From NCBI GenBank assembly GCA_008632985.1, contig QPGO01000034.1, forward strand, positions 139,311 through 203,310: 64,000 nucleotides of DNA, given 5' to 3'. Shown here piece after piece: positions 26,301 through 53,400 of this stretch (the stretch's first letter is position 1; each line of letters starts with the position of its first letter). The stretch is from Psammoneis japonica. Taxonomy: Eukaryota. The notes beneath the pieces were generated by a model. That model was given only the letters and a program-made list of their open reading frames with translations, did no database searches and was not told the origin of the DNA. Both the position numbers and the translations under genes were made by a program.

Positions 26301-28336
26301 CTAGCGGCAATGTCTCACCCGCAATCTGCAAAGCGACTCCAAACACCCGAGAGCAGACGTTTCCTTCAATTCCAAAACGGTATCCTTCTCGGGTGGTTGT
26401 AATGAGACGTGGATATTCATTTCACGTACACACACTTCTTCGGCCATTTCAGCTAGAACCTCAAAGCGTTTCTTACGATCGTTATCAATGACCTCCAATC
26501 GTTGACGTACCATCGACAAGGCAGGTCCCGACGCGACGGCGATACTCATTTCAATCTCAGCTTGACGTAAATTCTCGGATAACGACGCAAACGCGTTCAG
26601 CGATGCGCTGTTACCACTCTCATACTGTTTTCCAATCTCGACAGCAAGTTCACGTTGTCTCTTTACCATGTCATACCAATCTTGGTGGTGCGCACAAAAC
26701 AGTTCGACATCCAACTCGTAGCACCCCTTGATAACCCAAGTAGCAATGTCCACGTCACCCTTCTTTTCAGGCTGGAAAGAACCTCGGTTCTTGCACAGCT
26801 TCCCCAAACACTGCAGTTGTTCCATCAGGCTATCGAGCCGCTTCTGAATTGTTTGATTTGTAGTCATGTTGTTATCACTCACAGAACCAAACGGATACGT
26901 AGAGGATGATCGTGCCAAGCTTTCTTCTCTGGGGACGCCTTGAAGATCCAACAGCAATGGCCGAATCCCGGTGGAGGTTTCCGGGCCTGCCTTGCGACAA
27001 AGGAGGAATTTCAGCCGCTAAACAAGCAACGCAAAAGTCAGAAGACCATCTAAACAAGAACGTGAAACGCAAGCAACATGTTGGTGTGACGTACCCGAAG
27101 AGTCTCTTGCAAGCAAGGAATTTCCTCAGACAGCAACACACCGGGCACAGGTTTCAACCTAGCTCGCTTGGAGTCTAAAACACGGGCCAACTCGGTAAAG
27201 GGGAAAATTGCCTCAGCCATTTTCACTTCGAGCTCTTCGCAATGCTGTTCCAACGTAAGTGCTTCAACAAGAGAAGGTGTTTCGAGAGTACTCTGAATAA
27301 AGGCATTCACCTTGGATCTCTTGGCTTCAAGCTTGTCGCGTTGGTCTTGAAGGGCAATGTACTCATCCACGAGTTCTATAGGCGGTGCGCGTTGCACAGT
27401 CTGATGAGCTTCAAGAAAGGCTCGAAAGGGTGCTCTGTATTCGCACTTGACAAGATAGAGTCGTTTCGACACGACCGCATCCGCTTCAACTGCGCACTTG
27501 AACTGATGCAGTCGCATGGGAATATCTTCCTTCAATAGGCCAGCCAAGAGACGTGCCTCCCTTTCACACAGTGGACCCAATCCGGAAAGAGCTACTGCAG
27601 CTGATGTTGTGGCGTTTATGTTGCTACCAGCAGAGGTCCCGTGATGAGAAACCGCCGCGAAGGAGTCAACAAAGAGATCTGAATAGAATGCATGCTTTGT
27701 TAAAGTCCGCAGCAAACGTTGACATGACAAGAGTATATCATCAGCCCACACATAGTCCGGACACTGCAGCCTCGGGGATTCCCAACAATCTTTGGCGTTC
27801 AGACTCGTTTGCTTGTCTCTACCGCGTCCTGTTTCTGCCGCACGGATCGACTCAAGTACCCCGTGCGCTATACCCTGACTTCCCACTCCCAAAAGGGCTG
27901 AGGATGTTGCTGAGGATCCACTATCTGTTCCATAGTCGTTTGGATTCGCCAGGTTTGCCGACTGCGCTAACCGATCTTGAGAAATTCGTTCAATGGCATC
28001 GCTTGCAGCGTCGCAGCAGAGCCTTGCAAAGCTTTCCGATGATTCAGCCATACGTCGGACTTGTTGTGACCGCGGGGACGACGATTCTTCCTCTCGAAAC
28101 AAAACTTTCAATAACGACTGAGCTTGTTCGTTAAGGTCAATCCAAGCACACAAAAGAGCATTCGCAGAACAGACCGTCGCTGTCAATTGTCCTTCGTTGG
28201 CCCGATACAGAGCGACGTCCAACAACGTGATTAATCCAGGAACCGCTACCAAATCCAACGGACACTCCTGACTCTCTCCTGGAGATGAACGACTTCGAAA
28301 GAGCATGGAAAGCATATACGAAACGAGAGCAGTCAT
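26301..28336 (-). CDS. Hypothetical protein; intron 27018-27094
   Basis: The 428-aa and 218-aa ORFs join in frame across a GTACGT...TTTAG intron (ETLR|RLKFLLCRK...). Normal composition, no recognised domain. Confidence 0.7.
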
Positions 28337-30488
28337 GAAACCGGCGTGTCTAGTTGGCGTAGCGTCATGAGCGAACGTCCGGAAGTCTTTGTGGTGATCG
28401 ATGCATGAGAGTGTTGAGGGTGGCGGGCTGCGCCTGTTGCCCTCTCATTTCTATTACGTTTTTTCTTTTTTATTATTAAAATTTCCTTTTCAATAGGCAG
28501 TTTTAGTAACGAAATTCAAACCAGCATCTGTCACATAAGAACCCGTTGTTGTCGAAAAAGAATTCCCTGTTTAGTTGCAGATCCTGTTCTGGGTCCATCG
28601 AAATCGCCACTGATTGATGTGTGCCACCGGCTCATGCTTCTCTTCCAAATCCTTGTGTTTTCTCCTGCTTTGTCTTCTGGCAGTTCTGTCACCAGCCCTT
28701 CATTGAAAATCAGGTTTTGCTGGTCGTAAGGAGCAGAAGCCAACTCGTCCTCCCCTTCGTTTTGTGCTGCTGACCCAAGTGACATGGCCAGATTTGAGCT
28801 TCATCACATTCGCCATCACCATGCCAGTGCCAATGCTGCCCTTGCTCTGCTTGTTGTGGTCAACTCTTCATCAAAAAGCCAGCCACCACACCAGGTTGAC
28901 AGAAGAGCCCCCCCTCCCCAGCTGCTGATGACTTTCACACTTTGGATCACAGTCGATGATGCTGTTGCCCTCGAGGATCGTTTCGCTTTCCACAGCACCG
29001 GCAATGCTGTTGCTGATGGCCACCTTGACATGCACTTGATGAAGATTGAGCTTGAGGGAAATGAAAAAGGACTCTTCTGACGATGACGCAGCCGTGGCGC
29101 TGAATTGAACGCCACTGCAGGGCCAGTCCGCCTTGGCAACACGTTCACTCAGCTCCCACCAACCCGCACGTGCAAAGGCATGATCGTCGGCTGCGAAAAA
29201 CGTGTTGCCAACCAGACTGTGACTCCCATGATGGGAGCCAGAGCGAGAGCCGCCACGGTCGCCACAGCAAACAAAGCGCTCAGCAACGCCAACAAACGAA
29301 AGCGAGCAGGGCATTTCATGATGTTTGTGTAAAGAATGAGCAGCTGCAGTTGCAGTTGAGAGTTGTGCACTTCTTGAAAATCGCACCGGAACCAGGATTG
29401 ACAAGAAGTGAACAACAACACACCACGACTCCAAAATGCACTTTGTGCAACAATGCGGGTGCGAACTCGCTTTCCACCGCCAGCCAGTCATCCACAAAAT
29501 GCTCAGAATCGATCTTGTCAACCGTTCTGACGTTGATCGAGTGTCTCAAAAAATTGAGACACGTCATCAAGAATTGGGTGATGGGGCTTTCTGACACATC
29601 AGCATCAAAAGCACTGACACACCGTGCCTTTCATTGACCTTCAACTTCCTAAATGCCATTCGGAACTTCACCCGTCATCTTCGCGAAGTCAGGACCAAAA
29701 TGACACGGATCCACTTGGAATCAAAACCGCATCGAAACTTTGATGGTCAAAAGAGAGAGATGCATTTTCTTGATGTGAAAAGAGTGGTTTTGGCAACCGC
29801 AAAAAACAAGGCACTTGCTCCACTTGTGCACTGGTGGTTTTGCCACTGCCTGTGGTTGGTTGAGAGGCTCCTGTTTTTGCCAAAATGAGGGGCTGTGCTG
29901 CGGGCTCACACCACACATGTGCAACAGAGTTGGAGAGCTCTGGCATGTGTGCTGTGTCACTTCCAGGGCAAACAAGGATGAGTTGGAGTGTCTTGGGACA
30001 CTTCTTGGAAAGATCCAAGAGAAGAAGCCTGCTGGTGGGGTGCCTGTTCCAGCTCCAGGTGATCTGCTTTTCATCACACTAGATTTTCTGCGCAGTTTTC
30101 AGTGCCAGACATTTTTGTCTCCACCCGGCAGAGCTTCCACTTTTTTAATTTTGCAAACATTGATTGTTCAAATGATGCCATGTGTTTGTGATGTTTTGGT
30201 GCTCATCTGCAACAAATGAGGTGCATGTTGCATCACAGGAAGAATCGTGTCAGTTGGCATTTGATGTTTTTCTGCCAATGCGCAGAACAACCCTGACTTC
30301 CATGAACATGTGCCATCCACCCAACACACACACCAGCCACAATGCAGCACACCGCTGTCACCACTCCACAAGAGCCCCCTCTTTGATCTCACTGTTGCAT
30401 GGAACCGTCTGCTCTTTTCATTTCAAAGTTGTGTCATTGTCATCACAATGTGATTGTGGCTCCAAAGAGTTGCTGTTGTTGTGGATGA

Positions 30489-31194
30489 CACCATCTCTTT
30501 GCATTCTCTTGTTTCGAATTTGGCAAGTTGATTTGTCGTGGTTTTTTTTGCACGTCGTGTCTCCGTGCGCATGCATTTTTCTGGTTGCTTCTCACATCTC
30601 ATTTTATGGTTGTTTTTCACCAGGGCCTTCGGAATTTCTGCAAAACTCAAGCATTTGCCCAAACATTCTCCGAACAACAGTTGCTGCTGGAACAAACTTG
30701 TCTTGGTTTGTTTTCACTGTGACGCTTGCTGTTTGCACTTTTCAGCATCTAGAGCTGCCTTGGAGGCTGCCTTCGTGGCAACTGACATTGGCCCCCTCTC
30801 TGGAGTGCATTTGTCGCACAAGCAGGAGCTCACCATCTCTTTGCATTCTCTTGTTTCGAGTTCGGCAAGTTGATTTGTTGTGGGTTTTTTGCACGTCCTG
30901 TCTCCATGCACGTGCATTTTTCTGGTTGCTTCTCATGTCTCATTTTATGGTTGTTTTTCACCAGGGCCTTCGGAATTTCTACAAAACTCAAGCATTTGCC
31001 TGAACATTCTCCGAACAACAGTTGCTGCTGGAACAAACTTGTCTTGGTTTGTTTTCACTGTGATGCTTGCTGTTTGCACTTTCCAGCATCTGGAGCTGCC
31101 TTGAAGGCTGCCTCTGTTCATCCGCATGATGACTTTTGTGGTGACTGACGTCAGCCCCCTCTCTTGAGTGCTGCATTTGTCACACAATCAGGAG
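30489..31194. repeat. Tandem duplication, 342-bp period, two copies
   Basis: caccatctctttgcattctcttgtttcga occurs at 30489 and 30831, and the copies stay collinear for ~340 bp. Confidence 0.95.
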
Positions 31195-31199
31195 TGCAA

Positions 31200-34100
31200 A
31201 AGCAGTGCAATCACCATGGACACATTGGCCAAAGCAGCCTCCCAGCAGTGTCCCATTGGTGGCAGTTCCCTTCAAGCAAATGACAACTCTTCCAGCACAT
31301 TGAAGGTTTCCTTTTGCGTCCAGCATCGCGTCTGGGCACTCGAGGAACATTGCCCGCTGCAGGGCAAAGCCAAAACTTGGCACACTGTGCCTCTCCAAGA
31401 TGCAGTTGATCCCCTTGCATGCCCACAAGGTCTTGTAGATTTGAGCATCTTGACCACGGAAGATCATGAAACCAAGAAGATGAGCCCTCTCTTTTGTGTT
31501 CTTCATCACAAGAATGGTTTCGATGGGTTCAACAGTGTCAAAACACGGAACATGTTCCGCAACACTGTTGTCCATTGGTTTTGTGTGAAACATTCAATGC
31601 TGAGAATCGACCACAACTAAACCAACACATCAAGGACAAGAACCAGCACTCTCTTGATGTTGGCTGTGGCGCCATCAGTGATGTTGATGAGGGACGCCAT
31701 GCAGGACAAGCAAAACATTGCTGCTGTTTTGATGCACCGTGTCAAGACAAACACAGGCCTGCTTGTTGATCACGTCCATGTGACAGAATCTCAGGTTGTG
31801 GAGGTCGGGATGGGTGATGAGAGACAATCAATCATGCCATCAAGTCAAGGCATTTGTCCTTTTTTGTTGGACTTGTCCAAGCCATTTGCTGTGGTGTTGT
31901 CAAGAAGATGGATGCATCATGTCTTCATTGTCAGAAGATGTCGAAGTCTCATCACATGGGAGTGATGGGTTTCGAGGACATCACAGACACCATGAGTGAA
32001 CGTTCTGACCTGGCGGACATCCGCAAGCACTGGGAGTGGGATCATCTCATGCAGAATGACAGAGGCAACACGGTTGCCCTGTGTGCAAAGGAGATGATTG
32101 CTCCAACAATGAGCTCTGCAATTGTTTTGGCATTGCCTCATTCCAGCCCAGAGCATCAGAACGTCACAACAGAGATCTGCAGTGATGAAGACTTTTGGAC
32201 TTCCTGAAGGAGCATGCATTGCTGATCATTCGTGCTTTGCCAAGCACCAATTCCACAAATCATCTTTTGTCAACATTCAAAACCCAGAAACGCACGATCA
32301 TGAAAAGTTGACCAAAGATTTAAGCTCAATGAGTGGCTGCCTTTTGGCAATGTTGTGCACAGAAGTTGGTGGCAAATGAAGTCTCCAAATTTGATGAAGA
32401 GCCATTTTAAATGTTGGCTTTGAAGGGGTTGCATGTCAAGTTCTGCCATGAAATGAGACATCCTGTTTTAACTGCGAAACAGCACTGGGGTTCAATCAGC
32501 AACCATTGCTCTGTTCCAAATGAAATCGCTCAGAGGAAGCAGGTGGACAAAAAGCTGCATCAAAAACCATGCCTCAGCTGTGAGAAGTTGAGGAAGGGCA
32601 ATGTGGATGACAGCGATGATTGTGTTTTTCACAACAAGCATTGCAAAAAGGAGAAGCTTGAACAGTCGGATGATGACATGGAGGAAGATCCCTGCATTGC
32701 CAAACTTCCCACCGACGTAAAATGCAAAGTGCCCACAAGCTGCATGATTGGCTGCCGGAAGGTTTTCTCATTTGGACCATGCAACCCTGGTGAGACACTG
32801 CCATCAGAGGCATTGTTTGACATTGTTGCAGGTTGGTGGTGCAACCACATGTTGCGGATTCCCTCTGGTGGTGAAGACAAAGACTTTAAGCTGCAATGAT
32901 GCTCTGAGTCAGTGGAGGCCGTCATCAAAGACAAGCACATCTTTGAAGTTCACTTCCCTGCCAGACCAAGCAGGAAGGGCTGCTGCAAAGAGCTGCTTGC
33001 TCACCTTGCTGATTGGTGCAAGGCAGCTCCAGGACTTGCATGGCACAAGTTTTGCAGAAGGATTCATTGCCATCGTTGCATGGATCATGCCAGTGTCTGT
33101 GATGCAAGGATGAAGGCAGAGTTGGGGGAGGAAAAGGAAGAGGGGAAGGAGGGCACTGAAGTGGCGGATGACCTGCAAAAGGCTGAGGCTGGCACTGCAA
33201 GGTTTCAACTGTGAGACAAAACCAGGAGGAGCAAGATCAAGGTGGGGCCATGGATGAATCGACTGAGGAAAAGGAGGAAGATGATGGTGTGCGAGACAAA
33301 ATCCAGGAGGAGCAAGGTCAAGGTGGGGCCATGGCTGAATCGACTGAGGACAAGGAGAAGATGATGACCAGGAAGAAGTTGACAAAGCCAAGGGTGCAGA
33401 AGACTCAGCACTTGGAGACACAAAGGCAGAGAAGAGGGAGAGAGTGGGAGAAGCGTGTCACAGACATGATGTGAAGCTCATGAAGAAAGACACAACTGGA
33501 GTGAGCAAGGATGAGGATCTCATTGGCCTTCACAGCTCTGGGCCAAAACCAAAGGCAAAAGGAGCCACTTCATGGCATTGGTTGAGCAAAGAGCAGCGAC
33601 ACCAAGAAGAAAGGGATCAACTTGATTGTGAGTGCAAAGATGCTCAAGTGATGTTGTGGGTTAAAAAACTCACTTGGGTTGATCCAAGTTCATGGAACAG
33701 CAGGCGCCAGCATCCTGGTGATCCAAATTTGCTTTCAAGAAAAAAACGAAGGTGTCATGTTGTGGAAAAAATGGTTTGATGTGCAACACAATGAAATGAA
33801 CGGCCATTCCATGGACATGCATGTGTGGCCCTCATCGCACGTGCCGAACACAAACCAAACGTTCCCATGCAACTCAATCGAAAATGCAGGAACAAGATTA
33901 AGAACAAGGTGCAATCAATTTGCAACCCACCACAGATTGCCAAACTGAAGAGATTGACTGAAGCGGAGATTCAAAAACTTCCACCTGTTGGGCAGGGTGC
34001 TGATTTCATTGGCTGCAGCTTGGAGGGGAACTGTCCCATGTGTGCAACCCCAGATTGGGCTGAGTGCAATTTCAAGTTTCGGTTTCCAGATGTGTGGAAT

Positions 34101-34620
34101 GATTTGAAAGTGTTGAAGCCATTGGATGGTTTTTGCTCCTTGCCAGAAGGAAACGCATTGATGTCATTGAACAGCAACTTGCCGACGAGCGGCCCACCTG
34201 TGAAATTCCTGCAAGGACAAAACGACACTTGCATTTTTTTGTCTGTCCCTGGCCAGTGTTCTTGATTGTGCTGGCGACGTGGAAATGAGAGACTGCATTG
34301 CTTCTCACATTCAAACATCTGCCAACTGTGCCAACGCTGACAACAAGCACATGTTGTTTGCAAAGCACATGTTGAATGGTCATTTGAAGGGAAAATTCCC
34401 ACCTGCAAACTCAAACATTGGGTTTTGCAGCAGTGTGGATTGAACAATTTCCTTGGAAGCAGGTGGTGAATTTGATGTGACGACCTGCAATGATGACTTC
34501 ATAACTTTGTGCCATCTTGTGAACAACCACTGCATTGCCTTGCACCATGGTTGGATCTTTGATTCCAACCACCCTTTTGCATTGCCAGCAAAGGACATCA
34601 AGTGCTTGAATTGGTGAATT
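31200..34620 (+). pseudogene. Decayed large TE-associated ORF ending in a possible papain-fold (C39-like) domain
   Basis: Broken frames with protein-like text, an acidic tract with an ~80-bp tandem repeat (33211-33365), and C-terminal QGQNDTCIFLS...NHCIALHHGWIFDSNHPFALP...LNW. Confidence 0.45.
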
Positions 34621-34649
34621 GGGAACAAGGAACATGAGGTGCAACATGT

Positions 34650-37600
34650 GGCAAAAAAGCATCTGCAACAAGTGTTCATGTTGCACCAGTTTGAACTTCC
34701 AAGGGTGGTGCAGCAGCAGTTGCATGGAAAAAGGAAAGCTTTTGTGTTGGGTGGTTGATCTGGTCACACAATGCAAAGTGACAATCACAGTGTTCGTTCA
34801 TTTTCCCATTGCCATTTTGTTCATCCAACTCATCACTGTCGCTGTCTCCTGCCGCACTCTCATCATCCTCTGCAGTGTCCTCCTTGTTGTCATTCTCTCC
34901 CTCCCACTCATCACGGCCGAGTCACTTTCTCGGCATCATCCATCCCATTTGCAACTCCACATGAACCTGGAGGCACCGCAATCATGTCATGCAATTCAGT
35001 CGCTTCTCGCTGCCGCACCAAGATGCTCGATCCACTGGGACAATGGTCCATGCAAATTTTTGACGGCAAACAAGGGAAACAAGTCATGTTCATCTCGTGC
35101 TGCCATGTGTGCCCCAACAATTCCTTGACCGCAGGTGAAACTGCAGCCTGCGCCCAGCAAGTTAACTTGTTGCGCCAGCAAGGTTGAGCAAGACCCGAGC
35201 CTCGACACGCATTTTGTTGTGATCTCTCCCGGACATTGGAAACATTTCTGGACGATCTGAACTGGGAAGTTGTTTTGTTTGGTGATTTTAACACGGATTT
35301 TCGAAATGACACTGACTCACTGGCCCACTTGGCGATGAGATTCAAGCTCTCCGACGTGATGTGCAACAAAATGCAGGATCTTGAATTCGCCACCCATCTC
35401 CGCGAATCCCGCCGAACTTGATTGTGTCCTTGCCACCTCAGGAGCTCTCCAAGCTGTCACAAAATGCGGTTGTGAATCGTTCGGACATAGAATTTCCTCA
35501 GATCACCATGCCTGCCATGTGGACTTTGACACAGAGTTGTTGTTTGGCAATTCTTCCGCCGCGCTCCCTCGCCCATCCCATCGAACCCTTCTTGCAAAGT
35601 CTTCGAAGCATGTTGCGACTTGCCTCGAAGCCATCGGTCCAATGCTCAAGAGCCGCAATGTGTTAGATCGAAGTGCAGCACTCCTTGCATCTGAAGAGCC
35701 GGACCATGCCCTTGCAGAACGGTTGGACTGCGACATGACACAATTTTGCATCTCCGCAGCCAAACATTGTCGGTGTCATCATGAACCAGAGTGGTCTCAA
35801 AAACTTGTGGACTTGCGCAGCAAAGTCTTCATCCTGTCTCGCCTTCTTTCTATGTTCAAAAACAAGACCACCTTTGTGGAATCGATTGTTCATGAAAAAT
35901 GCAAATTAAAGAAGTCGTTCCTTCTCCCAACTGCTTTGGAGGAATGTCAGAATGCTCTCCAACGTGCCCAGTCCGAATGTAAAAAAGTTGCTCGTGACAG
36001 TCTACATCACCGTGAACGCAAACGTGATGCTCGGATTGCAGAACTAGATCTAGAAGGCACCAAGGCAGCAACTGAAGAGGCAAAGATTCTTTGGAATGTC
36101 AGATGTGCAGAAGAGATGTTGCGAGTGTTCCGAAAAATCAACGCGTTTGAAGATGAGGATGGTTCAAGTGTCAGCAAAGCACAGGTCCCGGCTGATCCTC
36201 TAGAGGATCCCAAGACATGTGAACATTGGGAAACAACAGACGCTCACAAGATGTCGCTGCTGCCCTGACAGCACAGAATCAAAAACATTTTGGACAAGCT
36301 CATGGCACTCCTCCGACCGTTCCTCCTCTGTTGATAGATCCAGGGTACGAAGGCAACACCATCATGGTGGATCTTGTTCTTGACGGCAAGTGTCCCACGT
36401 CCGGATTGACAGAAGCTGCGGCTTTACTGATTGAGCATCTCCGGCGACGAACCCCAGTGTCAGCATCCAATTTCCTCACACCTGAAGAAGCCAGTGGGAA
36501 ATTTAAGTCGTGGACAGAATCCACCTCCACTTCGATCAAGTCCGGTCTTCATTTAGGCCACTTTAAGGCCATGCATTCTAAGCACATGTGTTCTTCAGAA
36601 ACGGATCCACAAGGTGATCCCACCATGAGAAGCACTGAATTGGATGAAGTCCAAGACAGCCTGTGACAGATCCGCTTGAATCTGCTAAACTGCGCACTCA
36701 AATGGGGACATTCTTACGACAGGTGGTGTGACGTGGTCAATGTCATGATCTTCAAAGAGCCAGGCAACAACAAGATCCACCGTCTCCGCGTGATCCACAT
36801 GCATGAAGCGGACTTCCAGTTGATCACCAGTGTGAAATGGCGGGCCCCAGCACAACATGTGGAACAACGCCGATTGTTCAACCCAGGCATCTGCGGTGCT
36901 CAAACTTTCCTGTGTGCTCAGACTCCTGCATTCCTTGAAGTTTTAATGTTGGAGACATCAAGGGTTTCTCGCAAGACGTCAATCACGAGTGATGATGATT
37001 GCACCTCATGTTGCGACAGGAATCTCCCGGTCCTCATGGCGATCACATCAGACAGTTTGGGTGTGGAACCATCAGCAGTGGCTGCAGCAATCAAAACTGT
37101 CCATCTGGCCAGGTGCTGGTTGCTCACCTTGTCAGGTCTCTCTGAGGACTTTTACTCACACAACGCAGAATGCCCCATCTGCGGTGCTGGCCAAGGCAGT
37201 GGCAACTCCCCTTTTTGCTGGAACAACTTGTGCAGCATTCCATTCGATGTCTTCGACTCCAAGGCCAATGGAGCGTTCTTCAAATCACCAGACAGGTCTC
37301 ATCAGCTCAACATCTGCACAAGAGGACACGCAGACGATGCGCCCAAGCAGACGAATGACTTCAGAGCATCACCTCAGCCTTCCGCAGAAGATTTAACTCC
37401 CAAATTGCAGCACAACAACCAACTCTGGTGCGACTTGCTCCACGCTGGCGGACACGAACTGGAACTCCCCAAGTGTTCCTTTCACGCTGTCGATTGGGAC
37501 TTCTCTGAATTTGGTGAGCTGAGCCTCCGACCGTGTGACCAAGACATGTCTGTGGAAATTTTCTCAGCCGATTGCTCCACTTCCAGACACAGCAAGCAGC

Positions 37601-40600
37601 TGTTTCCCTTTGCTCCGCATGAAACACTGGGACACCACCCTTCCCCAGCTGGGACGCCAAAGAAACAGCAACAAGTGCTCCAAGCCAAGAGTGATGGAAA
37701 AGCGTCATTCATTCGGGCTGTCCCTCTAGACCGGACCGAATTGTGGAGATGCCACCATGCATGTCATTTGCCGTCGATGTCTTTTGTTCTTGCTGACTCT
37801 CGCTTTGCTTCCAAAGTGCTGAAACAAATGCAGCAGCGCACTGTGAGAGTCATGTTCGCCAAATGTGGTTGCAACAGGAATGCAAAGTGCTTGATGCCAC
37901 ATGGCCCTCAATCTCTTGGTGGCAGTGGGTTTCATTCTCTTGACATGGAACAGGGAATTGCCCAAATGCAGCAGCTGTTGAAACATTCTCGAGGCGCACA
38001 GCATCTTGTTCAAGATGATCAACCATGCGCTGCAGCTCACATTGCAATTGCATGGAATCAGCTGCATTTGGGCACTGGGGTCAGCTTCCTCAGAGACGTT
38101 GACACTCCTCATCCACATGACCAGTCACTGTGGTTTGCATCAGTTCAGTCTTTTCTGCAGAGCATTGGAGGCTGCATTGCATTGTCCCAAGATGGAGTGC
38201 TCCCCTTGCAGAGAGTCAACAATCAGTTTTTAATGGATGTTGCTCTGGAGTCACAAGAATTCACTTGAGAGAAATCCGATGGATCAATTGTTGCCGCTTG
38301 TGTCTTCGGGTCCTGACAGTCTCAGACATCACTCTGGCAGACGGATGCTTCTTAGACGAATCCAAAGTCTACGGCGATCCCACTTGCCTCAGCAGTGTCA
38401 GTGCCCTCAACAACGTCGAACAGATTGAACCTTGCCACCATGCATGGAGTCCTTGGATGCGGTCATGTGAGTTGTTGTGTCATCAAGACTCAGTTCGTTT
38501 GAAAGCTCCCTTGGGAGACTGGCTCGTGCCCCCTTCTGAAATGAGGATGCAATGTTCAGCGCATTGGTCTCCCAAAGAATCACACCCACACATTCGATCT
38601 CCATCAGGATTTGACATTTTTCCAGTCCAGGACACTGTTGCTGCGTCGCTGCGCCAAATCGAAACGGTTCCCTCCCCCTCTGATTCTTCATTCCCGGTTG
38701 AGATTGTCTCCACAGACGACAGCAGATGGAAACACATTCCTCATTGCCTGAAACTCTTGGTTGAAACAACTTCACCTGCACCTGATCTATTCACAGACCG
38801 CTTGCAAGCATTGCCTCCCTGGGAGTCCTCTCTCTTTTCAGACATTGATTTCCACATTCCCGTTTGTGAACTGATGGACTGTTTTGCATCAAGTCGCCTG
38901 GTTGCGGGCAGCGACGGATCCGCACTTCATCATGATGCAACCTTCGGATGGACGATTGCATTCAATGGCAGACCCTTGGTGGATTGTGCTGGTCCGGTGT
39001 CTGGTCGTTTGCCATCATCCTGTTGAGCTGAGGCTCACGGTTTTCTCTCCCTGATTTGGTTCATCTATCGTCTGATGGAGTTTTGCAAGATGTCAATGTA
39101 TGAAGGTGTCAACAACTGGTGTGACAACAAGGCCTTGGTCTGTGTCCTTTCCAGATTGTCTTCCAGCCACCTGTCCATCAACCCGTCGCCACAAGAGCAT
39201 TCCGACAGAGACTTTTGTCTGTGACAACATGATGCCAATGTTCTTTCATCTGACTGGGATGTTGTCAATGAAATGCACTTAACGCTCAAAGCCATTCCTC
39301 AGGCTCTAAATCCTTCTTCCCCCGGGCAGGCACCATCCACAGCTTGGGCAAAAGGACACCAGGATGGACAAGCTCCAGTGGAGACCCTCCCACTGAATGC
39401 ACAAGTCAATGTACATGCAGATGGGTTGGCAGGAAGATGCCAAGGACAACATGATGCAGACACAATGGAGGTGCTTCCCTTTCCCCATTGTCAATCATGC
39501 CTTTGCCTCACTGATGGAATGGTCACTGCAGGAATGAAATCCATGGTCAGACATGCCACAATGGCTCCTGCTCTCTTGGCATGCATTCGGGAAAGAAACG
39601 ATTGGGATGAATCCATCACAGAAAAGATTGACTGGAAGGTCCATGCAACATTGGTGTGCAGGTGCTCCAAGAAACAAGCATCCACGGTTAAACTCATCCA
39701 CGACCTCCTTCCAACAAACAAGATCACTCATCAGCACAATCCTGTGTGGCCACATCACTGCCTCACGCGCAAACACCCTGTGGAGGATCGCGACCACATT
39801 TTAAGATGCCCTGCCAACGAGGCCTGGCATCGCAAATTCCCACAGGGCGGGCAAAAACACTGTGACAAAATTGACAAAATGCCACCTCTGCACGATCCAC
39901 TGCTGACTTCCCTTGAGACATGGCTGAGAGGTGAGATGCAGCATGAATCAGACATCACCCCAATGCTGCGAATGCCATGGAAAGCCCAGTCAGAAATGGG
40001 ATGGCGACAAGTTTTTAACGGACGGCACTCTGCCCTTTGGAGTGTGTTTCAGGAGATGCATCTTCGTGAGACGGGTCTGTTGGAGAAATGTGGGAAAGAG
40101 AATCGACCTCCTCCAGTGTGGGGAGTGCAGACAGGAACTTGCATTTGGAAGTCCTGGTGGGAACTGTGGGAAGAACACAATCAGGAGGTTCATGGTCATG
40201 ATGCAGATTCAAGGAAATCATCTTTACGACGTCAGGCAGAAGCTGAGCTCACAGCTGTTTGCAACAAAAGACAGGATCATTTGGCCAAAGACAGAGAGGT
40301 GCTGCTGGATTCAGCAGACAACCACATGACCCACTCTACACTGCGGATTGTGAATTGGGTTGCTGTGGTTAAACCACGTCCAAAAGAAAGCCGAAGAAGG
40401 CAAAGCGCGAGGCGCTTTGTGGTGCTCGCTCCATTGCAAGCTATTTTGGATGGGTGTCATCTCATGGTGACGCCCCTTCCAGCTGATCCCAAGAAGCTTC
40501 TGCCACACTTGACGGTGCACTGGAAGTGTGGGTCAGCCGGCGCCCGCTTGGCTGGCAAAGGAGTGACAGCACTTTAAACACAGATCTGGTTTTTTTTTTC

Positions 40601-42200
40601 CTCCCACTCGTCAGTTTTGCTGCTGTTGTGTTCCTCCACCTCGTCCAAACAGCCCTCAAAACAATCCATTGCCTCCCACTGTTGGATGGCATCCAGAATT
40701 CCTTCATGCTCGTCATCCTCAAATGATGTGGATCAAGAAGTGAAGCCTCATTCCTTTTGCATGCACTTGGCAGTTCCAGAGTGGCTGAGGGTTCATTGAG
40801 CTCAATGTTGGCAATTGCAATTTGCTTGAGCAACACTCTTGTCTCACATTCATCAGCATCACCGGGAGTGCACCATCCTCTGGCCCTTGGAACAGGGTTG
40901 AGACATGTTCCCTTGCAATCCCATTCACTGGCCTCAACAGTTGTGGGTGGGTCAAACTCTGTCCACACCTCATCCTCCTGTGCTTTGTGGGGGAGTTCAT
41001 CCCATTGCAGCAGACAAAAGCCCTCCTCAGATTCACAAGACAATGCAGCATGGCTGTTTAGAACAATTTCCTTGGCCATTTCCTCAGTCAGGAAGTCCAA
41101 CACAGATTTGTCAACCAACTGCACCTTGTTGGCGTCACTCTCATCTGTTTGAATCACCTGACACACTTGCCATTGTTCAGCCCCTCAAAATGGGCCACAG
41201 TTTGCAAGCTCAGTTGCCACCTGCATGTTCTGGCTGCTCTGTTGGCTTGACGTGTTTTTCACCCAAGGCCATTTGAGCTCACCCAGGCAGGCTTCACAAG
41301 CACAAGGAATTCTTTGCATGGCAACCCAACCAATGGGGAAAAGAGGTTCAAATTGGAAATGGTGCAAGGCTCTGATGCCACAATGGCGTGTGTGCACTTG
41401 CACCAATCCAGTCAACTTGACTTTGATTAAAGAGCCAAGAACTCCATCAGCTTCCTGCAGACAATGCACCCTTTCTGTTGACTTTTGAAGGGATTCCCTC
41501 TTGGCATGTTTCCTGTTGCCAACTGCACCAAGAGCATTTTTTTCTTTGTGAGCAATTTGCAACATTCCTTGGCATGACTGTGTGCGACTACAATGCCATT
41601 GTCATCCATGACCAAAGCTTCAGGTCCAATTTTCCCATCCTCGTCATTGACTCCTGCAGCAGTTGTGGACTGCATTTCTCAATGCATGAGTGATTCAATG
41701 CAGGCTCCAATGCCATCAACCTTTCCTTTGCCATGTCCAGGTGCTCCAATGGCATGGTCAAACACAATGTTTTGCATTTGTGCATAAACACAGACAACAA
41801 GTGCAGCGCCAAAGCACATCAGCACTGTTTGGCACAACCACAGGTGTGATCCCAAATCACAAGCCATGCCTGACACAGGTTGTGGGATTTTAACCAGATG
41901 ACAAACTTTTCTAAGTGAGCATGGGTGGTGGTGGCATCTTGCTTGCTGAAAGAGTCAGAGAGATGCGCACGATGTGTTTTCTGAAGCACATTGTCAACCA
42001 TGATTGCATCGCAAACTCTTCCTTCAATTGACAATGTTTGGCGTGGGCCCCTTGCTCTTGCAAATGCCAAGAAAATGATGACAGCAAAAGATGGAATGTC
42101 CAGCACACATTGCTGCGCAGCATTGGGCATGCCAGCATTTTTTGCAACAGCCGTCTTCTCAAACAGCCTTGGCGTGCGGCTTTTCGCAGCTCTTGTTCAA
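34650..42200 (-). mobile_element. Degenerate Sola2-like DDD transposase gene interrupted by the LINE
   Basis: Motifs TLSIEG, HLSDSFSKQDATTTHAH, IWDHTCGCAKQC*CA and FDHAIGAPGHGKGKVDGIGA. The acidic C-terminal frame continues across the LINE. Superfamily call rests on the recalled DGC..QY / HGKG..DG.G signature. Confidence 0.65.
34914..40599 (+). mobile_element. 5'-truncated Ambal-like non-LTR retrotransposon (APE endonuclease, RT, RNase H, CCHC) flanked by a 14-bp TSD
   Basis: APE: PGGT, DPLGQWS, LFGDFN, SDHH. RT: MIFKEPGNNKIHRLRVIHMHEAD, TSCCDR, ICGAGQGSGNSP, GHADD. RNase H: GSDGS, SSC*AEAHG, WCDNKAL, AKGHQD. Zinc knuckle: EDRDHILRC. TSD cctcccactc(a/g)tca at 34900-34913 and 40600-40613. Confidence 0.9.
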
Positions 42201-45120
42201 GCAGCCACTGCACACTGACTTCTGGCAGCTTTCAATCAAAGCAACATGCTGCACTGCTGCACATTCTCCTCATGCCAGCTGCACTTTTCTCTTTCTGTGT
42301 CACAGCCTTGCCCAAGTGTTGCCACACTCTGACCTGCGCTGCCTTGCCAAACATGATGAGCAGGAAGACTTTGTTTGTGCAGCAGCACACACACTGAGCA
42401 GGCCAGCAGTCAAGAGCTGAGCAGCAGAGCAGCAACCTTGGTTGGCAGCAAGCCTCTTTTGTGCCCACTTGTGGGAGATTTGAGACAGCATCAACAAAAG
42501 GTGTTGGGTGGAGCGCTGCTGCAGTTTTCTTTGTTTGCCATCATCGCGAGCATCAAATTCTCTCTGCCAAGCAGCACACAGCAATGTTGTGTGGACTGCT
42601 GTCTCTGCTGTTTGGACTGCATTGTGGTTTTTCCACCCTCTCAATCATGGACCAGTTGGTGCCTTGCCTCCCAGCATGAGCACTTGAGCTCAAAATCATC
42701 ATCTTTGCAAAGTTGCAAACAAAATGATGCAAATCAACTTAGAATCAACAGAGTGCATCACAGTCAAGAGAGGCACATCTTGATGAGAGAACAACACCAG
42801 CTCTTTGGCAAAAAAGGGGCAAGACAGCTCACTTGTGTGCCAGCATTTTGCCACTGTCTGTCATTGGGAAGGGTCATTTTCAACAGTGATGCTGCTGGCT
42901 GTTGGCTCCATGCATGAAGGAGAGGGCTTTTGGCATGGTGCACAGCTTCTTTTGAGCTCTTGCAAAAAAAAAGCTGCAAATGGGGCACTGCTCTTTTGCC
43001 AAGAGCAGATCAGAGGGTTTTAGAAGCTCAAGAAGATCATCCTCTGCCAGATGATCATGGCCAAAGTCACGACCAAAATGAAGTGTGGACCAACTCAAAA
43101 TCAACAGATTGCATCATGGCCAAGAGGAGAGGTGCATCTTGACAGGAACAACAGTGGCTTGGCAAAAGAGGAACAAGACAGCCCACTTGTGTGCCAGCAT
43201 TTTGCTGCTGTGTCTGTTTTTGGGGAGGGCCATTTTTGTCAATGAGGCTGCTGGCTCCACACATGAGGGAGAGGGTTTTTGGTGTGGCACACAGCTTCTT
43301 TTGAGCTCTTGCAAAAAGAGGCCTGCATGTGGGGCACTGCTCTTTTGCCAAGAGCAGAGATCAGAGGGTCTTGGAAGCTTGGGAAGATCCCCTGCCAGAT
43401 GACAACAACTTCTTGTGGGACAAATGCAAAAGAAGCCTGAGCTGCAGCAGAGCAGCTTTGGCATCTCTCTCAGCAGCAGCAGCAGCAGCAGCAAAATTGA
43501 AGGGAGGAGATGATGTTTTTACCCCAGCTTGCAAAATGCAAGCAGCACCAAGAGTTGGAAAAATGACGTGGCACAGATTGAGAAGTGAGTGCTGGAGTTG
43601 AGTCAACGTGCCATTCGTGACAAAATGCCATGCCCAAAGTCCAACACATTGCCTTTGAAGGAGCCCTTTGTTGCTGCTTTTTGCAACAACTCAGCATGTC
43701 AACAGCACAACTCCTCATGCTCCCCTGTGTCTCTGGCAGTTCTCAGCAGTGTGGCTGCTGTTCTGTCAAATGCCAACAAAATTGTGATGGCAGCAACAGA
43801 CAGAGTGTCCAGGGCACATTGCTGCACACCATTGGGTGCATTGGCATTTTTTGCACAGACCATCTGCTCAAACCTTGGGAGCTTTTGCAGTTTGTTTTTA
43901 ATTGAAAGCTCTTGCAAACTTGCCCCCAGCTTCCAAAACAAGATGCTGTGCTGCCATGCATTCTCATGCTGCCGCTGTGCTTTTCATTTCCTGTGTTGTG
44001 GCCTTGTTCCAAAATGTTGCCACTCCCTGCCACACCAAACATGGCTGGGCAGACTTTGTTTGTGGCACACACACAAAACAGCCCTCACCCTGCACTGAAC
44101 AGACCAAGGGTCAAGAGCTGAGAGGCAACAGCCACCTTGATGATCAGCAGCAAGCCTCTTTCATTGTTGCTGGTGGGGAGGTTTGACAGCATCAAGGCAA
44201 GGTGTTGGGCCCACTGCACTCTGCTTCTTTGTTTGCCATCATTGCCAGCAGCATTGAGTTTGCTCTGCCAAGCATGCAGAGATGTTTGTGGAGGCCAACT
44301 GCCATCTCTGTTTGGACTGTGTGCTGTGGATTTTGCACCCACCACTCAATGGACCAGACAGTGCCCCCCCCCCCCCCGTGGGTGCTTGAGCTCCGCTTCT
44401 TGAGTGTCATCCAATGTGTTGCCAGGAGAGCAGGCAAACAGCCTCAATTTCCCCAAGTTCCTCAATGTCATCTGACCAGTCCCCAGACAACACTGGGCAA
44501 TGACAAGCTTGCAGCACAGGTGATTCTGGTTGCAGCAGTGTCAAGACTGCCCTGGCAAAGGACACTGGCTCTAAGGTGTTGGTCAAAAATTGCACAAATT
44601 CATCAAAGTTGGCAGCCATGCCCTCATCAAAATTCTGAAACAGGTGCCCCCGAATCCACTGCTGCCATGGCATCAAATGCATCAGAGCACTGAAATGCTG
44701 CTGCCACACCTTGAACATCAGATTCTCTCATCTGCAATGCAGGTGTGCACACAGCACACATGAGGAGTCCATTCAGCACATTGCTGCAGTTTGCCAGCAG
44801 AGGGCAAAGCACAAGTGCACCACATGTTTTGTGTGTTTGGCATTTGTCATTTTTTCATCAGCTGGCACACCATGCAGGCTTGTGTGTTGTGTGAGCACTG
44901 ATGTGCTGCTGCCTCAGTTGCTGCTCTTGCAATGTGCACCTTGGTGTGTGACAGATGACAAAACATCAGATTCTCTCAGCAACAATGTTGGTGCACACAT
45001 GAGTCCTTCGAGCATGTTGCTGCAGTCTGCTGAGGGGGGCAAAGCACAAACATGCCAAAAATTTTGTGCTTGGCGCATGTGCAGCTTTCCATCAGCTGGC
45101 ATGTGTGTGCTTTTGCACCT
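42200..45120. repeat. Cluster of diverged internal duplications
   Basis: ~357-bp tandem pair starting at 42732 and 43089. 42390-42690 resembles 44090-44400, and 44715-44880 resembles 44963-45110. Confidence 0.8.
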
Positions 45121-45819
45121 TCAGCAAGGTCTTCATTGTGGCCATCAGATGATGATGTGCTGTTGCCATTGTTGCACCTGCAATGGAAGAGAAAGTGTCT
45201 TGTCCAAGAACTGGAGTTGGCCCAGCCAGAGTCAATTTGGAGGTGCTGCAAAAGACACCACCAGTCTGCTGTGGAGGGCTCACAGCAGTCATGAACATGC
45301 ACATTGGCAAGGTGCTTGTGCACAGAAGCTTGAGGTCAGCACATGAAGCTCAGCAGCATCTTAAACAGCAATGTGGCAACCAGGTGAGCATCATGAAGTT
45401 TGTCTTGCTGTCACACTGTGGGCAAGAAACAAAAACTGATTTTTGATTCCAAGCCTTCAGATGTTGCCATTTTTCTTCTGTGTGTCTGGCACTGCTGCTT
45501 CAAAACCCAGCATGACTGGCCTGCATGCGGGCAATGCTTCAAGTTGTGATCTGCAGTCAAACATCCTTTCTGACAATCCCACAGGGCATGCTTGCAACAG
45601 AAGGGAGTTCCAGTGTCATGCACCAGTTTGCATGAACAACATTTCTTGGACGTGTCACTCAGCGGCATCCAGTGCAGCATTGTTGGTCATGCCATTTTTG
45701 GTCAGCAAGATGGTCATCTTGAAGAGTGGTTTTAGCAGCATCTTGTGAAATGGGGGGTCAGCACATTGTCTTGGCATGTGGCACTGAAGATTGCTCGGTG
45801 TTTCTTGGTGCTGCTGCAA

Positions 45820-46750
45820 AGGAACAAACCAGTGCCATCTTTCCCACTGAGGATGTCTGGAGCCAATTTGTGAAGATGGGTGCATGCCCCCCTGGGGCAT
45901 TGATGACCAAATCCAGCTGCACAGTGATGCTTGTTCTTGCACAATTCATGAAGTCGCAAACTTCTGAGCGAGGCTTTTGCAAGTTGTCCGCAAGCTTTGC
46001 ACAGCAATCATGCAGAGCATTGCCTTGGCTTCCTTGCCAAGCAGACAATCACATGATGTGACAAATGGTGTGAAGTGACATCATTGGTGAAGACAAGGCT
46101 TGAGATTCTTGCATCTCTTTTGCTCATGATCCGCCAGAACCTGTTCTGGTGTCTTGGGTTGATGTGATGTTGCACCCCACTTCTGGAGCACCAACATCAA
46201 CCACCACATCTGGCTTTTTGCCCCAGATTGCACTCTGGAACAACTGGAATGTTCTTGGAGTTGTCAACAGGATGACAACTTTGCTTGGGTCTGATGTTGT
46301 GCAGAGCAAGAAAGAACTTCTGAGCTGCTTGCTTGAAATTTTCCCGCTGCTGCTGAGTCATCAGCGCACCAAGAGGTGAGTGGGCATTTTGGGGAAATGA
46401 GCACTCATGTCTTGAGCTGGTTGCAGAAGAAGCCCCAGTCCATGTGGCTGCTGCAGTGTCATGCAGCCAACCCCAGCGGATCAACTTGGGCATTGCCACC
46501 TTCCCTGTTGCTGACTGAGCAAGAAGGCCACCTTGCGCCAAAGTGGCTGGGGACAACTGGAATGGCCCAATGATTGCAACAATTGAAAGCAGCAAAAAAT
46601 GGCCAAGCATGTCTCATGTCGTGAGCAACATCAAGGCCCTCCTGCCACTCAGCTCATCATTGAATCCATTGGGTGCATTGATGGGAAAACAGAAAAGTGC
46701 AGTCGTCTTTGAACTTGTGCTGCTCCCTGTTCCCAGAGCACATGCATCGC
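45820..46750 (-). mobile_element. Second, internally deleted CRE-like RLE retrotransposon remnant
   Basis: Fragments PINAPNGFNDE, RHAWP..AFNCCNHWA, REGGNAQVDPLG, KLADNLQKPRSEVC and SRHPQWE(K)DGTGL. Same C-terminus as the 15200-17480 element. Confidence 0.75.
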
Positions 46751-47137
46751 ACAAATGCCTCCTCCTTTGATGCCTGCTGATTTTTGTCTGGCACCAAGAG
46801 CCTCTTTGCTGTGAGAGCCCGATGGGCTGCCGCCCATGGGGGAGATTCGTTGGCTGGCCAGTTTGTGAACATGCATCATGCATGGCGCCTCCCTGAGAGG
46901 CGCACACCTCTTGGCAGTGTTTTTCTTTTTGCACGCGTCTGCGGTTGCCGTAAAGTGTACGTAGGAATTAGTAATAATTTTGAAAGTACCAAGTTCCACG
47001 AATGTTCTACACACGAACACATGGTATTAATTCTACCAAGCTACACAAAAATGATAGTGATTGAGAAATTTAGCAACGGTCACGACACAAACAAAATCTC
47101 TCGGAAAGCGTTTCCTTTCGCGCTCGATTTTCGGTCA

Positions 47138-47429
47138 CAACTCGTCGTCTCGCACGATGTGTTGTTGTTTGCCAAGCCGGAAGCCGCAATCTCCAAGGAT
47201 GGCTCGCCCTTCCTCTGGATTGAGAGCTTGCTCTTGTTTGGCATTCCACAACTCATTTTGCTTGATGGTGTGTTGTCTCTCTTTTTCAACTCGTCGTCTC
47301 GCACGTTGTGTTGTTGTTCGCCAAGCTTGAATGCCGTAATCGCCAAGGATGGCTCGCCCTTCCTCTGGATTGAGCACTCGCTCTTGTTTGGTGCTCCACA
47401 ACTCATTTTGCTTGATAGCGTGTTGTCTC
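47138..47429. repeat. Direct repeat, 150-bp period, two copies
   Basis: caactcgtcgtctcgcacg...ccaaggatggctcgcccttcctctggattgag...gtgttgtctc at 47138 and 47288. Confidence 0.95.
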
Positions 47430-51689: not shown

Positions 51690-53400
51690 TCGCCCAATTG
51701 CAAACCAGAGTTCTTTGACAACGGCAACAACGACAGCAACCACAGCACAGCTGCAGTCTTTCTGGATCTGGACATAAAAATTGGAGAAGATTGGTGCATT
51801 GTCAGCGTGAACATGTCAAAAACCAGTGGACCTCTTTTTCTGCATGCCTCATTTAACAAGCATCATTCATGGCAACTTGTGATGAGATTCTGGATGCAAA
51901 ACTCTGACACCGACACACCATGATTTGCCAATGCTGCAGAAAAGTTTGTGATGTGCGTGCACACCACAACAACACGCTGGCTCAGCATGATGATTCTTCG
52001 ATGCGGCAGATTTGTGACAGCACACTCACAATCACGAAAGTCAAGCAATGCCCCAATCAAAACCCATCTTGACCAACCAGAAGGACAGCAGGTCTCACCA
52101 TGCATTGAGCTGCTGTCATTGGCCAATGGGGTGAAGTCTTTCACCGCCATGGCAGGTTGTCGATTTGCAAATTTGCAACCACACGCAGGATCCACGTGAA
52201 TCCTCACAACAGCACATGCTCTTGTTTTTCAAATTTTGGGGAAAGGGTGCACTGTTGTGAAGTGTGCAGAAAATTGCGCATGCAAAAAATGCACTGAAAA
52301 TGCCCCAGACCAACGGGCTGCGCAAATCTGGGAAACATGAAGAAAAACGAAGGTGGGTCATGTGCGTGCGTGAAGTGCAGCAGACTGCACACGTGCAAAG
52401 ACACACACATGTGAGTGAGGAGGACAAAGTCAAAACCAAGTTCAAATTGATGACAACCAAAAGGAAACCAAAAACCGTGCACAACAAAAAACAGATTTCG
52501 GCGGGTTCCAGTCCCAGGCGGGACTCCGTGTGATGTTGGGCACGCACAATTCTGCGCGCAAGCTCCGCAGCAAATTTGTGCTGCAACAAAAACATGAATG
52601 ATCGCCAACAGAAAAAGAGGCAATTTTACGAACGCATCTCCTCCTTCACACTTGCAGCACATCATCAACAGTTTGCCCGGGCACATTCTAGAGACATCAA
52701 AGAACACACCCAGCGCATTTTCATTCTCACAAATTTTGAAAACAGAAATCCTTTGGCTTCGCAAAACAGGGAGCATGAAACAATTTCCCAGAATGCATCA
52801 CGTAGAAATGCATGTGCGCGACACACGATGCGATCCAAAAAACTGTTGATGTCACAGTGCAGCAGCACGAGGTCCCACCTGCAGCTGGAGCACGTCTTTC
52901 AACCCCAACCAAATCAAACATTGATGAGACATCAGATGAAATGCACAAAACAGTTGCATTTTGTTGAGCACTTTTGCTGGCATTTTTAAATTCTGCCTGT
53001 TGACAATTTTGAGAATGCACATTAAAAAATGCACAAAGGAAAGTGGAGGCCGCCCGCTGCACCACTGCGGGGCCTCGCTCTGATGTTCACACCCCAGCCC
53101 ACACTGCTGCCACTTTGCTTGACCATCTCTCACACCTTCTCTTCTGCTCCTTGTCAGACTCCACCATGCCAATGCTCCCCCCCCCCAAACAACCATCTGC
53201 ATTGTTCGATGCCTTCTCATTTGCGACTGCCTTTCCCACATGGCTTGCTTTTTGCTTTGTTCTTGGTGGCTTGGGCAGCCACTTGGACAAGTCAGCCAAC
53301 CATCCACTGCTCCCTCCCAGTGGGGCATTCAGAGCATGAGCTGTGTTGTAACCTGAAACTCGACGAATCACTTGCTTCACCCCCTCATCCAAACCGTGCA
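51690..53400. repeat. TpA-depleted decayed repeat island, family unassigned
   Basis: TA is rare and mostly ttaa/ctag, while CG is partly retained. Only spurious Cys/His-rich ORFs. Confidence 0.65.

Follow-up and report, generated by a model that had tools for sequence, protein, structure and literature searches.

Does a transposable element lose its TpA dinucleotides faster than its CpG dinucleotides, and is the first loss a process of its own or a by-product of the second? The question is raised by a retrotransposon of the long interspersed nuclear element (LINE) type in a stretch of 64,000 nucleotides from Psammoneis japonica (assembly GCA_008632985.1, contig QPGO01000034.1, positions 139,311 to 203,310), here called the window. 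The LINE lies inside an older repeat, its host. In an initial annotation it was described as holding about 40 TA in about 5.6 kb, where several hundred would be expected, together with many CG, the older host having lost both. Exact counting bears this out. Positions 35000-40560 (5561 bases, GC content 0.504) contain 40 TA against about 333 expected from composition, an observed/expected ratio (o/e) of 0.12, and 199 CG (o/e 0.57), together with 520 TG (o/e 1.60) and 559 CA (o/e 1.51). The host at 40600-46900 retains 13 TA (o/e 0.03) and 52 CG (o/e 0.13), with TG at an o/e of 1.83 and CA at 1.95. It was looked at whether CpG is equally or more depleted than TpA in the LINE by exact count, and the ratios are 0.12 for TA vs 0.57 for CG. 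In the rest of the window (91 bins of 500 bases outside 28501-46500) the median o/e is 0.50 for TA and 0.93 for CG. We consider it likely that the LINE inserted into an older high-copy repeat and that its TpA was converted by a targeted mutator ahead of a slower CpG decay.

The element and the duplication that frames it are made up as follows:

34914-40599, + strand: dead, slightly 5'-truncated non-long-terminal-repeat (non-LTR) retrotransposon, the LINE, with endonuclease, reverse transcriptase, RNase H-like and C-terminal zinc-finger-like regions
36667-38268, + strand: reverse-transcriptase region of the LINE, assigned by homologues (P0001, an open frame of 533 amino acids)
34900-34913, no strand: target-site duplication, 5' copy, cctcccactcAtca, 13/14 identical to 40600-40613
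40600-40613, no strand: target-site duplication, 3' copy, cctcccactcGtca
40590-40599, + strand: T10 run closing the LINE, between the terminal TAA of the open reading frame (ORF; 40575) and the target-site duplication

The initial annotation had recognized the element correctly and set its limits slightly off, at 35000-40560 instead of 34914-40599. Over the full extent there are 41 TA and 203 CG, with an o/e of 0.12 for TA, 1.59 for TG and 1.52 for CA. A tblastn search with the full-length relative P0042 (1934 amino acids) places residues 100-1930 at 34918-40433, in an alignment of four pieces that includes three frame shifts, and the reading frame contains four in-frame TGA stops. The 5' truncation is seen in that the element begins at about residue 100 of this relative; full-length relatives measure about 1900-2000 amino acids. 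The 3' end is formed by the T10 run on the coding strand, with no poly-A tail. The P0001 frame has 38 homologues in one search and 2952 library representatives at E<=0.001, and its FxDD/YxDD box reads HADD. Pfam gave no match in five ORFs of the LINE, nor in 12 further ORFs of the surrounding block. In a Pfam scan of three long relatives PF03372 (Exo_endo_phos) was found above the curated cut-off in P0042 and P0045 and below it in P0053 (19.5 vs 24.5 bits), and by these matches the LINE family is predicted to carry an Exo_endo_phos endonuclease at its N-terminus. The central domain of the relatives was recognized neither by Pfam nor by a PDB sequence-profile search (0 matches). A structure predicted for this domain of the relative P0046 (predicted local distance difference test, pLDDT, 87.7) matched the reverse transcriptases of R2 and LINE-1 ORF2p in a fold search (E 2e-17 to 1e-12, TMq 0.58-0.67), and as judged from this model the element is a genuine non-LTR retrotransposon with a reverse transcriptase of the non-LTR type. 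The clade to which the LINE belongs is large, and its fold is R2/LINE-1-like, yet the Pfam RVT models and the PDB sequence profile miss its reverse transcriptase. No convincing further fragment of the LINE family was found in the window, the 28 tblastn rows outside the element all having E>=0.045.

The LINE had been taken as nested in and younger than its host, and this view holds. The target-site duplication sits exactly at the borders set by protein homology, with 13 of 14 letters identical, and its single mismatch is CpA in the 5' copy vs CpG in the 3' copy. Public runs were consulted as Logan contigs, namely run X1, which may be the window's own source sample, and two runs of the same sample; no RNA run is among the public runs listed for this stretch. 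One X1 contig links 34910 to 40621 with 5710 bases skipped and seven other letters between, and since it spans the insertion point without the LINE, a host copy lacking the LINE exists.

The direction of change can be read from conserved codons. A frame-corrected translation of the LINE (X at the breaks) was aligned to 48 relatives of at least 1500 amino acids, and 349 columns in which >=60% of the relatives agree were taken as conserved. At the 16 conserved tyrosine columns the LINE has one TAC, eight TGY (Cys), five CAY (His) and two TTT codons; TA was lost in 13 of the 14 informative TAY codons, via both TA>TG and TA>CA. At the 27 conserved arginine columns the codons are 12 CGN, seven AGR, four CAR, two CAY, one TGA and one CTG. 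CpG-type decay is seen in seven of the 19 informative CGN codons (the four CAR, two CAY and one TGA), and 12 are still CGN. At these polarized codons the losses of TA (13/14) and CG (7/19) differ with a Fisher p of 0.0014. As a leave-one-out control every relative was scored like the LINE, and conserved tyrosines were kept in the relatives at a median of 0.71 and a minimum of 0.47. Changes from Tyr to His or Cys occur in 13/16 cells of the LINE vs 36/770 in the relatives (p 2e-14) and changes from Arg to Gln, His, Cys or Trp in 6/26 vs 65/1213 (p 0.003). The LINE keeps 244 of the 305 remaining conserved columns (0.80; median of the relatives 0.81, range 0.64-0.91), and since these residues are as well kept as in the relatives, the copy is young by ordinary substitution. 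The codons indicate that the TA loss is mutational, without excess change at other conserved codons.

How much was lost was estimated against related elements. A metagenome scan gave 80 related LINE loci (L001-L080), 56 of them free of stops over the matched region; the 54 without stop and with at least 3 kb served as baseline per kb. The TA o/e of the 80 relatives is 0.38-0.85 (median 0.68) vs 0.11 in the LINE and their CG o/e 0.32-1.13 (median 0.97) vs 0.57. Tyrosine makes up 2.3-4.5% of their residues (median 3.6%) vs 0.3% in the LINE, and histidine plus cysteine a median of 5.8% vs 9.6%. Two of the loci, L078 and L080, combine a low CG o/e (0.37 and 0.32) with normal tyrosine content. The LINE has 7.1 TA per kb vs 45.8 in the 54 intact relatives (0.15 remaining) and 35.6 CG per kb vs 54.1 (0.66 remaining). 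That TpA loss exceeds CpG loss, as had been proposed, is thus found both at the codons and per kb. By these comparisons the LINE has lost about 85-93% of its TpA, by TpA>TpG and TpA>CpA, since its last functional ancestor, whereas conversion to TpG or CpA has reached no more than about 35% of its CpGs, the host being further along on both counts. With both treated as first-order decay, the ratio of the TpA to the CpG rate is 3.5 (from o/e), 4.6 (per kb) or 5.7 (from codons), which, with TA close to its floor, are minimum values. Over this lineage the per-site rate of TpA conversion exceeded that of CpG decay by a factor of at least about 3.5-6. As read from the aligned codons, the ranking since the last functional ancestor is TpA before CpG before any other change.

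Because the codon test dates from the last functional ancestor, this ranking is independent of where the loss occurred; the speed after insertion is not. This matters for the explanation that the LINE arrived already poor in TA, copied from a source that had been hypermutated elsewhere, in which case the nested age would say nothing about the speed in place. We regard it as unlikely. It draws some support from the lack of a close paralogue with which TG and CA could be compared site by site, the search for close paralogous proteins of the LINE having given 10 matches, all of <=44% identity. The copy, however, has 13 of 14 tyrosine codons destroyed, an HADD box, three frame shifts and four TGA stops, and a source so damaged would have been mobile only in trans. 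Moreover, three LINE contigs differ from this copy by 38/303, 65/463 and 53/417 letters, about as independent resolution of TA and CG predicts, and the ranking, being measured from the last functional ancestor, is unaffected by this explanation.

The two losses can also be told apart. They are chemically distinct, since TpA loss is A:T>G:C and CpG loss is G:C>A:T. For their distribution along the element the LINE was split into six bins of the relative's coordinates:

CG remaining, LINE bins 1-6: 0.90, 0.71, 0.73, 0.54, 0.53, 0.50
TA remaining, LINE bins 1-6: 0.10, 0.40, 0.07, 0.10, 0.14, 0.14

In the first ~900 bases 0.90 of the CG remain vs 0.10 of the TA. CpG retention drops from 0.90 at the 5' end to 0.50 at the 3' end of 34914-40599 and the intact relatives are flat at 53-57 CG per kb; possible causes of this gradient are a lack of methylation in the 5' region or spreading that starts at the 3' flank. 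Among 127 non-overlapping 500-base bins of the window 71 are normal, both dinucleotides are scarce in 38, 18 are TA-poor and CG-rich and none is CG-poor and TA-rich. A single process that removes both TpA and CpG, for instance a deaminase acting on A and on C, is quite improbable in our view, even though the edges of the depleted block are equal at 500-base resolution for both, TA and CG o/e are correlated (Spearman 0.79 with all bins taken, 0.54 for those in the block), and ADAT2-type enzymes that deaminate A and C in DNA are cited in a preprint on the alga Bigelowiella natans (Mettrop et al., bioRxiv 10.64898/2026.01.13.699255). Against it, the losses are uncoupled within the LINE, both in its 5' part and over its 11 bins (Spearman 0.32, p 0.34), and TA-only loss is found in 18 bins with CG-only loss in none. 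In addition, 230 of 231 new mutations in B. natans were A:T>G:C at TpA, and the word CpG is absent from the main text of the preprint. The suggestion that TpA loss is no by-product of CpG decay therefore stands, on the opposite chemistry, the uncoupled 5' part of the LINE and the 18 vs 0 bins.

Both losses are confined to one shared block, which contains the LINE:

28580-46950, no strand: block of about 18.4 kb with sharp edges, depleted of TpA and CpG and enriched in TpG and CpA, delimited by TA and CG density

TA sites are closely spaced as far as 28572, become sparse beyond it and are frequent again from 46951 onwards, each change taking place within a few bases; the CG o/e falls in the same 500-base bins as that of TA, and the bins flanking the block have a TA o/e of 0.4-0.76. 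The block edges disregard the borders of the LINE. This bears on the idea that LINE RNA was edited from A to inosine by an ADAR-like enzyme before reverse transcription and integration, for which it can be said that LINEs pass through RNA and that, according to the Discussion of the preprint, ADAR favours an A preceded by U. Editing of the sense strand, however, yields TA>TG only, and the tyrosine codons show eight TGY together with five CAY outcomes, so that both strands are affected. Furthermore, the host, which is no LINE, and at least six other blocks without domains are equally or more TA-poor, and the edges ignore the element. We hold RNA editing to be very improbable. After Y the tyrosine codons gave five Cys and three His, after R three Cys and two His, small numbers for telling a TAY from an RTA target rule. 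On the coding strand of the LINE TG is 1.79 times and CA 1.12 times as frequent as in the 54 intact relatives, and the NTGY classes are raised 2.1-2.5 times. This excess of TG over CA may point to a preference for one strand or for TAY; variation among the relatives is wide, and eight TG and five CA outcomes are not decisive.

Another explanation does without mutation and takes the TA-poverty either as family composition or selection, or as an artefact of base calling or assembly at modified bases. Modified bases cause systematic errors in long reads, and TA is generally scarce, with a median o/e of 0.68 in the relatives and of 0.50 in the bins outside the block. None of the 80 related loci, however, lies below a TA o/e of 0.38, tyrosine stands at 2.3-4.5% in them vs 0.3% in the LINE, and conserved tyrosine codons read Cys or His. 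As to an artefact, X1 contigs contain 58% of the sampled words of 33500-42000, and contig pieces agree with the window, with two differences in 297 bases (32135-32430) and two in 992 (28000-28991), X1 being possibly the source sample. A non-mutational origin is hardly credible on these grounds. The deficit of TA plus CG and the surplus of TG plus CA are roughly in balance (466/393 in the LINE, 617/551 in the left and 723/703 in the right part of the host) and the GC content of block sequence is constant at 0.48-0.50, which together argues against a general GC-biased process. The changes act at the DNA level, are specific for dinucleotide and context and are bounded to a domain. Their two-stranded, context-specific and domain-bounded character rules out family composition, GC-biased conversion and pre-integration editing of sense RNA.

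The context of the TAs that survive qualifies the claim that TpA outpaces CpG. The 41 surviving TAs of the LINE are far from randomly drawn and comprise 24 YTAR (14 of them TTAA), 11 YTAY, three RTAR and three RTAY (R, purine; Y, pyrimidine). Compared with the 54 relatives, the fraction remaining is 0.04 for RTAY, 0.08 for RTAR, 0.11 for YTAY and 0.62 for YTAR, meaning that RTAY, RTAR and YTAY sites are 89-96% gone. TTAA is undepleted, at 2.36 per kb in the LINE vs 1.92 per kb in the relatives. In the host, the surviving TAs are 0 RTAY, five RTAR, five YTAY and 21 YTAR. On these fractions the claim is valid for about 85% of the ancestral TpAs, YTAR going no faster than CpG, and what had been called erosion is better read as a context-dependent hypermutation that nearly spares YTAR, chiefly TTAA.

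The host and its flanks were characterized from the same contigs:

30000-34913, no strand: left arm of the host repeat interrupted by the LINE, word depth 1200-3000
40614-42006, no strand: right arm of the same high-copy host repeat, summed word depth 1600-2660, CG o/e 0.10-0.25, TA o/e 0.03-0.11
42007-46950, no strand: lower-copy and most decayed part of the block, depth 170-300

Summed word depth, which does not equal copy number, reaches 1200-3000 at about 30000-34670 and 1600-2660 at about 40000-42000 in X1 contigs, with 280-930 in the LINE and about 57 in a neighbouring gene. Since the depth of the host is far above that of the neighbouring gene, the LINE sits in a high-copy repeat. At 28730-34913 there are 18 TA (o/e 0.04) and 139 CG (o/e 0.39), at 41935-46811 seven TA (o/e 0.02) and 38 CG (o/e 0.13). 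The CpG o/e of the left arm is 0.39 vs 0.15 in the right arm; as the arms differ in CpG retention, the host is probably composite. None of 59 ORFs of the left arm gave a Pfam family at the curated cut-off, 128 host ORFs at E<=1 gave chance-level Pfam matches only, all below curated cut-offs, and for the host ORF at 40600-41184 (- strand) no homologue was found among longer proteins. There are 1591 differences between the window and other contigs, 40 of which were examined: in 16 the window has TG or CA vs CG in the contigs, in seven TG or CA vs TA, in six CG vs TG or CA, in none TA vs TG or CA, and 11 are of other kinds.

Four tandem duplications were noted at 30489-31194 (about 340 bases, 86%), 33210-33366 (77 bases, 92%), 42708-43402 (345 bases, 78%) and 47138-47429 (142 bases, 90%), the first three inside the TA-poor block and the last just past its right edge. 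Differences between the tandem copies are rich in CG-vs-TG/CA and TG-vs-CA pairs. The diverged copies 42708-43054 and 43062-43402 lie in the lower-copy part of the block, and diverged tandem copies inside the block show 37 TG-vs-CA double differences, a pattern left when one ancestral TA or CG is resolved independently in each copy. A contig of run X2 (1140 bases, word depth 4612) matches 28953-29340 at about 90% (39 differences in 388 bases), which points to a relative of very high copy number for this part of the block.

Outside the block, the genes of the window are eukaryotic, with long open exons. For the pseudouridine synthase the Atlas returned just a rank-2 cluster in which Bacillariophyta is the most frequent phylum, a weak lead towards a diatom, and for Vps26 it returned no lineage. 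Six further intergenic blocks are TA-poor, at 1-1402, 6741-9052, 11250-12500, 15407-17385, 51755-53300 and 55750-57250. Three of them are poor in both dinucleotides (TA o/e 0.02-0.05, CG o/e 0.11-0.17), and 11250-12500 and 51755-53300 keep most of their CpG (CG o/e 0.41-0.78), as the LINE does. No Pfam family was found above curated cut-offs in 50 ORFs of these other TA-poor blocks. The sequence at 11828-12817 aligns to its reverse complement with 66.7% identity in 1020 columns and forms a long inverted repeat in a TA-poor block that retains CG.

The conversion of TpA ahead of CpG would be brought about by a DNA-level, domain-targeted mutator directed at silenced mobile DNA. The most economical candidate would be an enzyme that deaminates A where it follows T, giving inosine that is read as G, by analogy with what was proposed for B. 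natans. Such a mutator may act in bursts soon after insertion, and the CpG loss would come from methylated cytosine of the same chromatin deaminating more slowly, in a clock-like manner. Several points weigh against this reading. The mutator enzyme, the CpG methylation and the burst-like timing are putative here. The comparison covers a single LINE copy, and the rate ratio is a time average obtained with TA near its floor. The TA loss may have taken place at the insertion site or may partly have been inherited from a mutated source copy. The host may be neither one element nor a transposon, and it has no recognizable protein. The CG density of the LINE (35.6 per kb) falls within the 19.9-67.9 per kb of the intact relatives, and CpG loss therefore rests on the seven arginine codons and the one mismatch of the target-site duplication; composition by itself is insufficient for it, and the arginine codons supply the proof. 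Finally, the clustering of the surviving TAs is weak, a maximum of 17 in 1.2 kb being reached by 393 of 5000 random placements; a post-hoc test on bins (16 vs 6.5 expected, p 0.001) was chosen after inspection and is not independent.

If a natural enzyme deaminates adenine at TpA in chromosomal DNA, it would constitute a new class of eukaryotic genome defence and, if this is true, a natural counterpart of the laboratory adenine base editors. A wider proposal may be made, which we put forward tentatively as quite possible, if short of probable: this genome, probably that of a diatom, would run a chromatin-targeted DNA adenine deaminase as first-line defence that acts strongly on RTAY, less on mixed contexts and almost never on TTAA and that destroys the tyrosine codons of a new transposon several-fold ahead of methyl-CpG decay and at a stage when ordinary substitutions cannot yet be seen. 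Together with Bigelowiella this would make an old defence across the supergroup of stramenopiles, alveolates and Rhizaria (SAR). An account of the TA loss as a side effect of methylation is untenable, and the polarity of the loss was proved from codons without a family consensus. Since TpA goes first and CpG later while the rest is unchanged, TA loss dates insertions far more finely than CpG decay does. Candidate enzymes can be tested directly against the footprint, in which RTAY is hit hardest and TTAA resists. Furthermore, as Pfam is blank on a LINE of 5.7 kb, the transposable-element content of such genomes is underestimated by domain-based annotation.

Among known systems the closest comparison is the TpA-restricted hypermutation of integrated giant-virus and virophage DNA that was described in the chlorarachniophyte (Rhizaria) B. 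natans (Mettrop et al., bioRxiv 10.64898/2026.01.13.699255). According to the main text of this preprint, 230 of 231 new mutations in two viral regions of accumulation lines were A>G or T>C changes, every one at TpA, at a rate of about 6e-7 per site per generation vs 3.5e-10 elsewhere (about 1000-fold) and in some lines only, and reverse-transcriptase and endonuclease-reverse-transcriptase Pfam families were enriched among TpA-poor coding sequences (10.64898/2026.01.13.699255). As far as this text goes, the likeness lies in the change itself, A:T>G:C at TpA giving TpG or CpA depending on the strand, here seen from 13/14 tyrosine codons, in the coupling of TpA depletion to CpA and TpG enrichment (TA 0.12, TG 1.59 and CA 1.52 in the LINE), and in the restriction to foreign or silent DNA with normal neighbours, here with edges at about 28575 and 46950 and with silence of the block presumed. 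The window, however, comes from another eukaryote, the process was measured in B. natans as new mutations whereas here its end state alone is seen, and the depletion is deeper here (o/e 0.03-0.12 vs 0.45). The main text of the preprint has 0 mentions of CpG, diatom, context, flanking or TTAA, so that the ranking against CpG and the sparing of YTAR/TTAA are not found in it (10.64898/2026.01.13.699255). A full-text literature search found, within the collection searched, neither TpA hypermutation in diatoms nor its ranking against CpG decay.

Repeat-induced point mutation, or RIP, in Neurospora and other ascomycetes changes C to T mainly at CpA, which creates TpA and AT-rich DNA. Like RIP, the process at this locus is a transition hypermutation at the DNA level that is specific for a dinucleotide, inactivates mobile or repeated DNA and spares neighbouring genes. 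The direction is opposite, since here TpA is destroyed and TpG and CpA are made, at a GC content of 0.48-0.50. As to the duplication criterion of RIP, many contigs in run X1 are similar to the host and the LINE, an observation that does not cover the other TA-poor blocks. RIP is also named as a comparison in the Discussion of the preprint (10.64898/2026.01.13.699255). Methyl-CpG decay resembles the second process in the block, in which CpG has gone to TpG or CpA, as seen from seven of 19 arginine codons, the mismatch of the target-site duplication and 16 of the 40 examined differences. Loss of TpA is outside the reach of methyl-CpG decay, and CpG decay lags TpA loss in the LINE.

The tRNA adenosine deaminases TadA and ADAT have U33-A34 as their substrate context. 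With these enzymes and with ADAR and APOBEC the process shares, as far as the main text of the preprint describes them, deaminase-type clusters of transitions directed against mobile nucleic acids and the preference for an edited A after U or T. They act on RNA, on single-stranded cDNA or on C, whereas here both strands of chromosomal DNA are changed, sequence other than retroelements included. The working mode is like that of the hypermutation known from B. natans, the reverse of fungal RIP, and the window offers a well-polarized instance of it.

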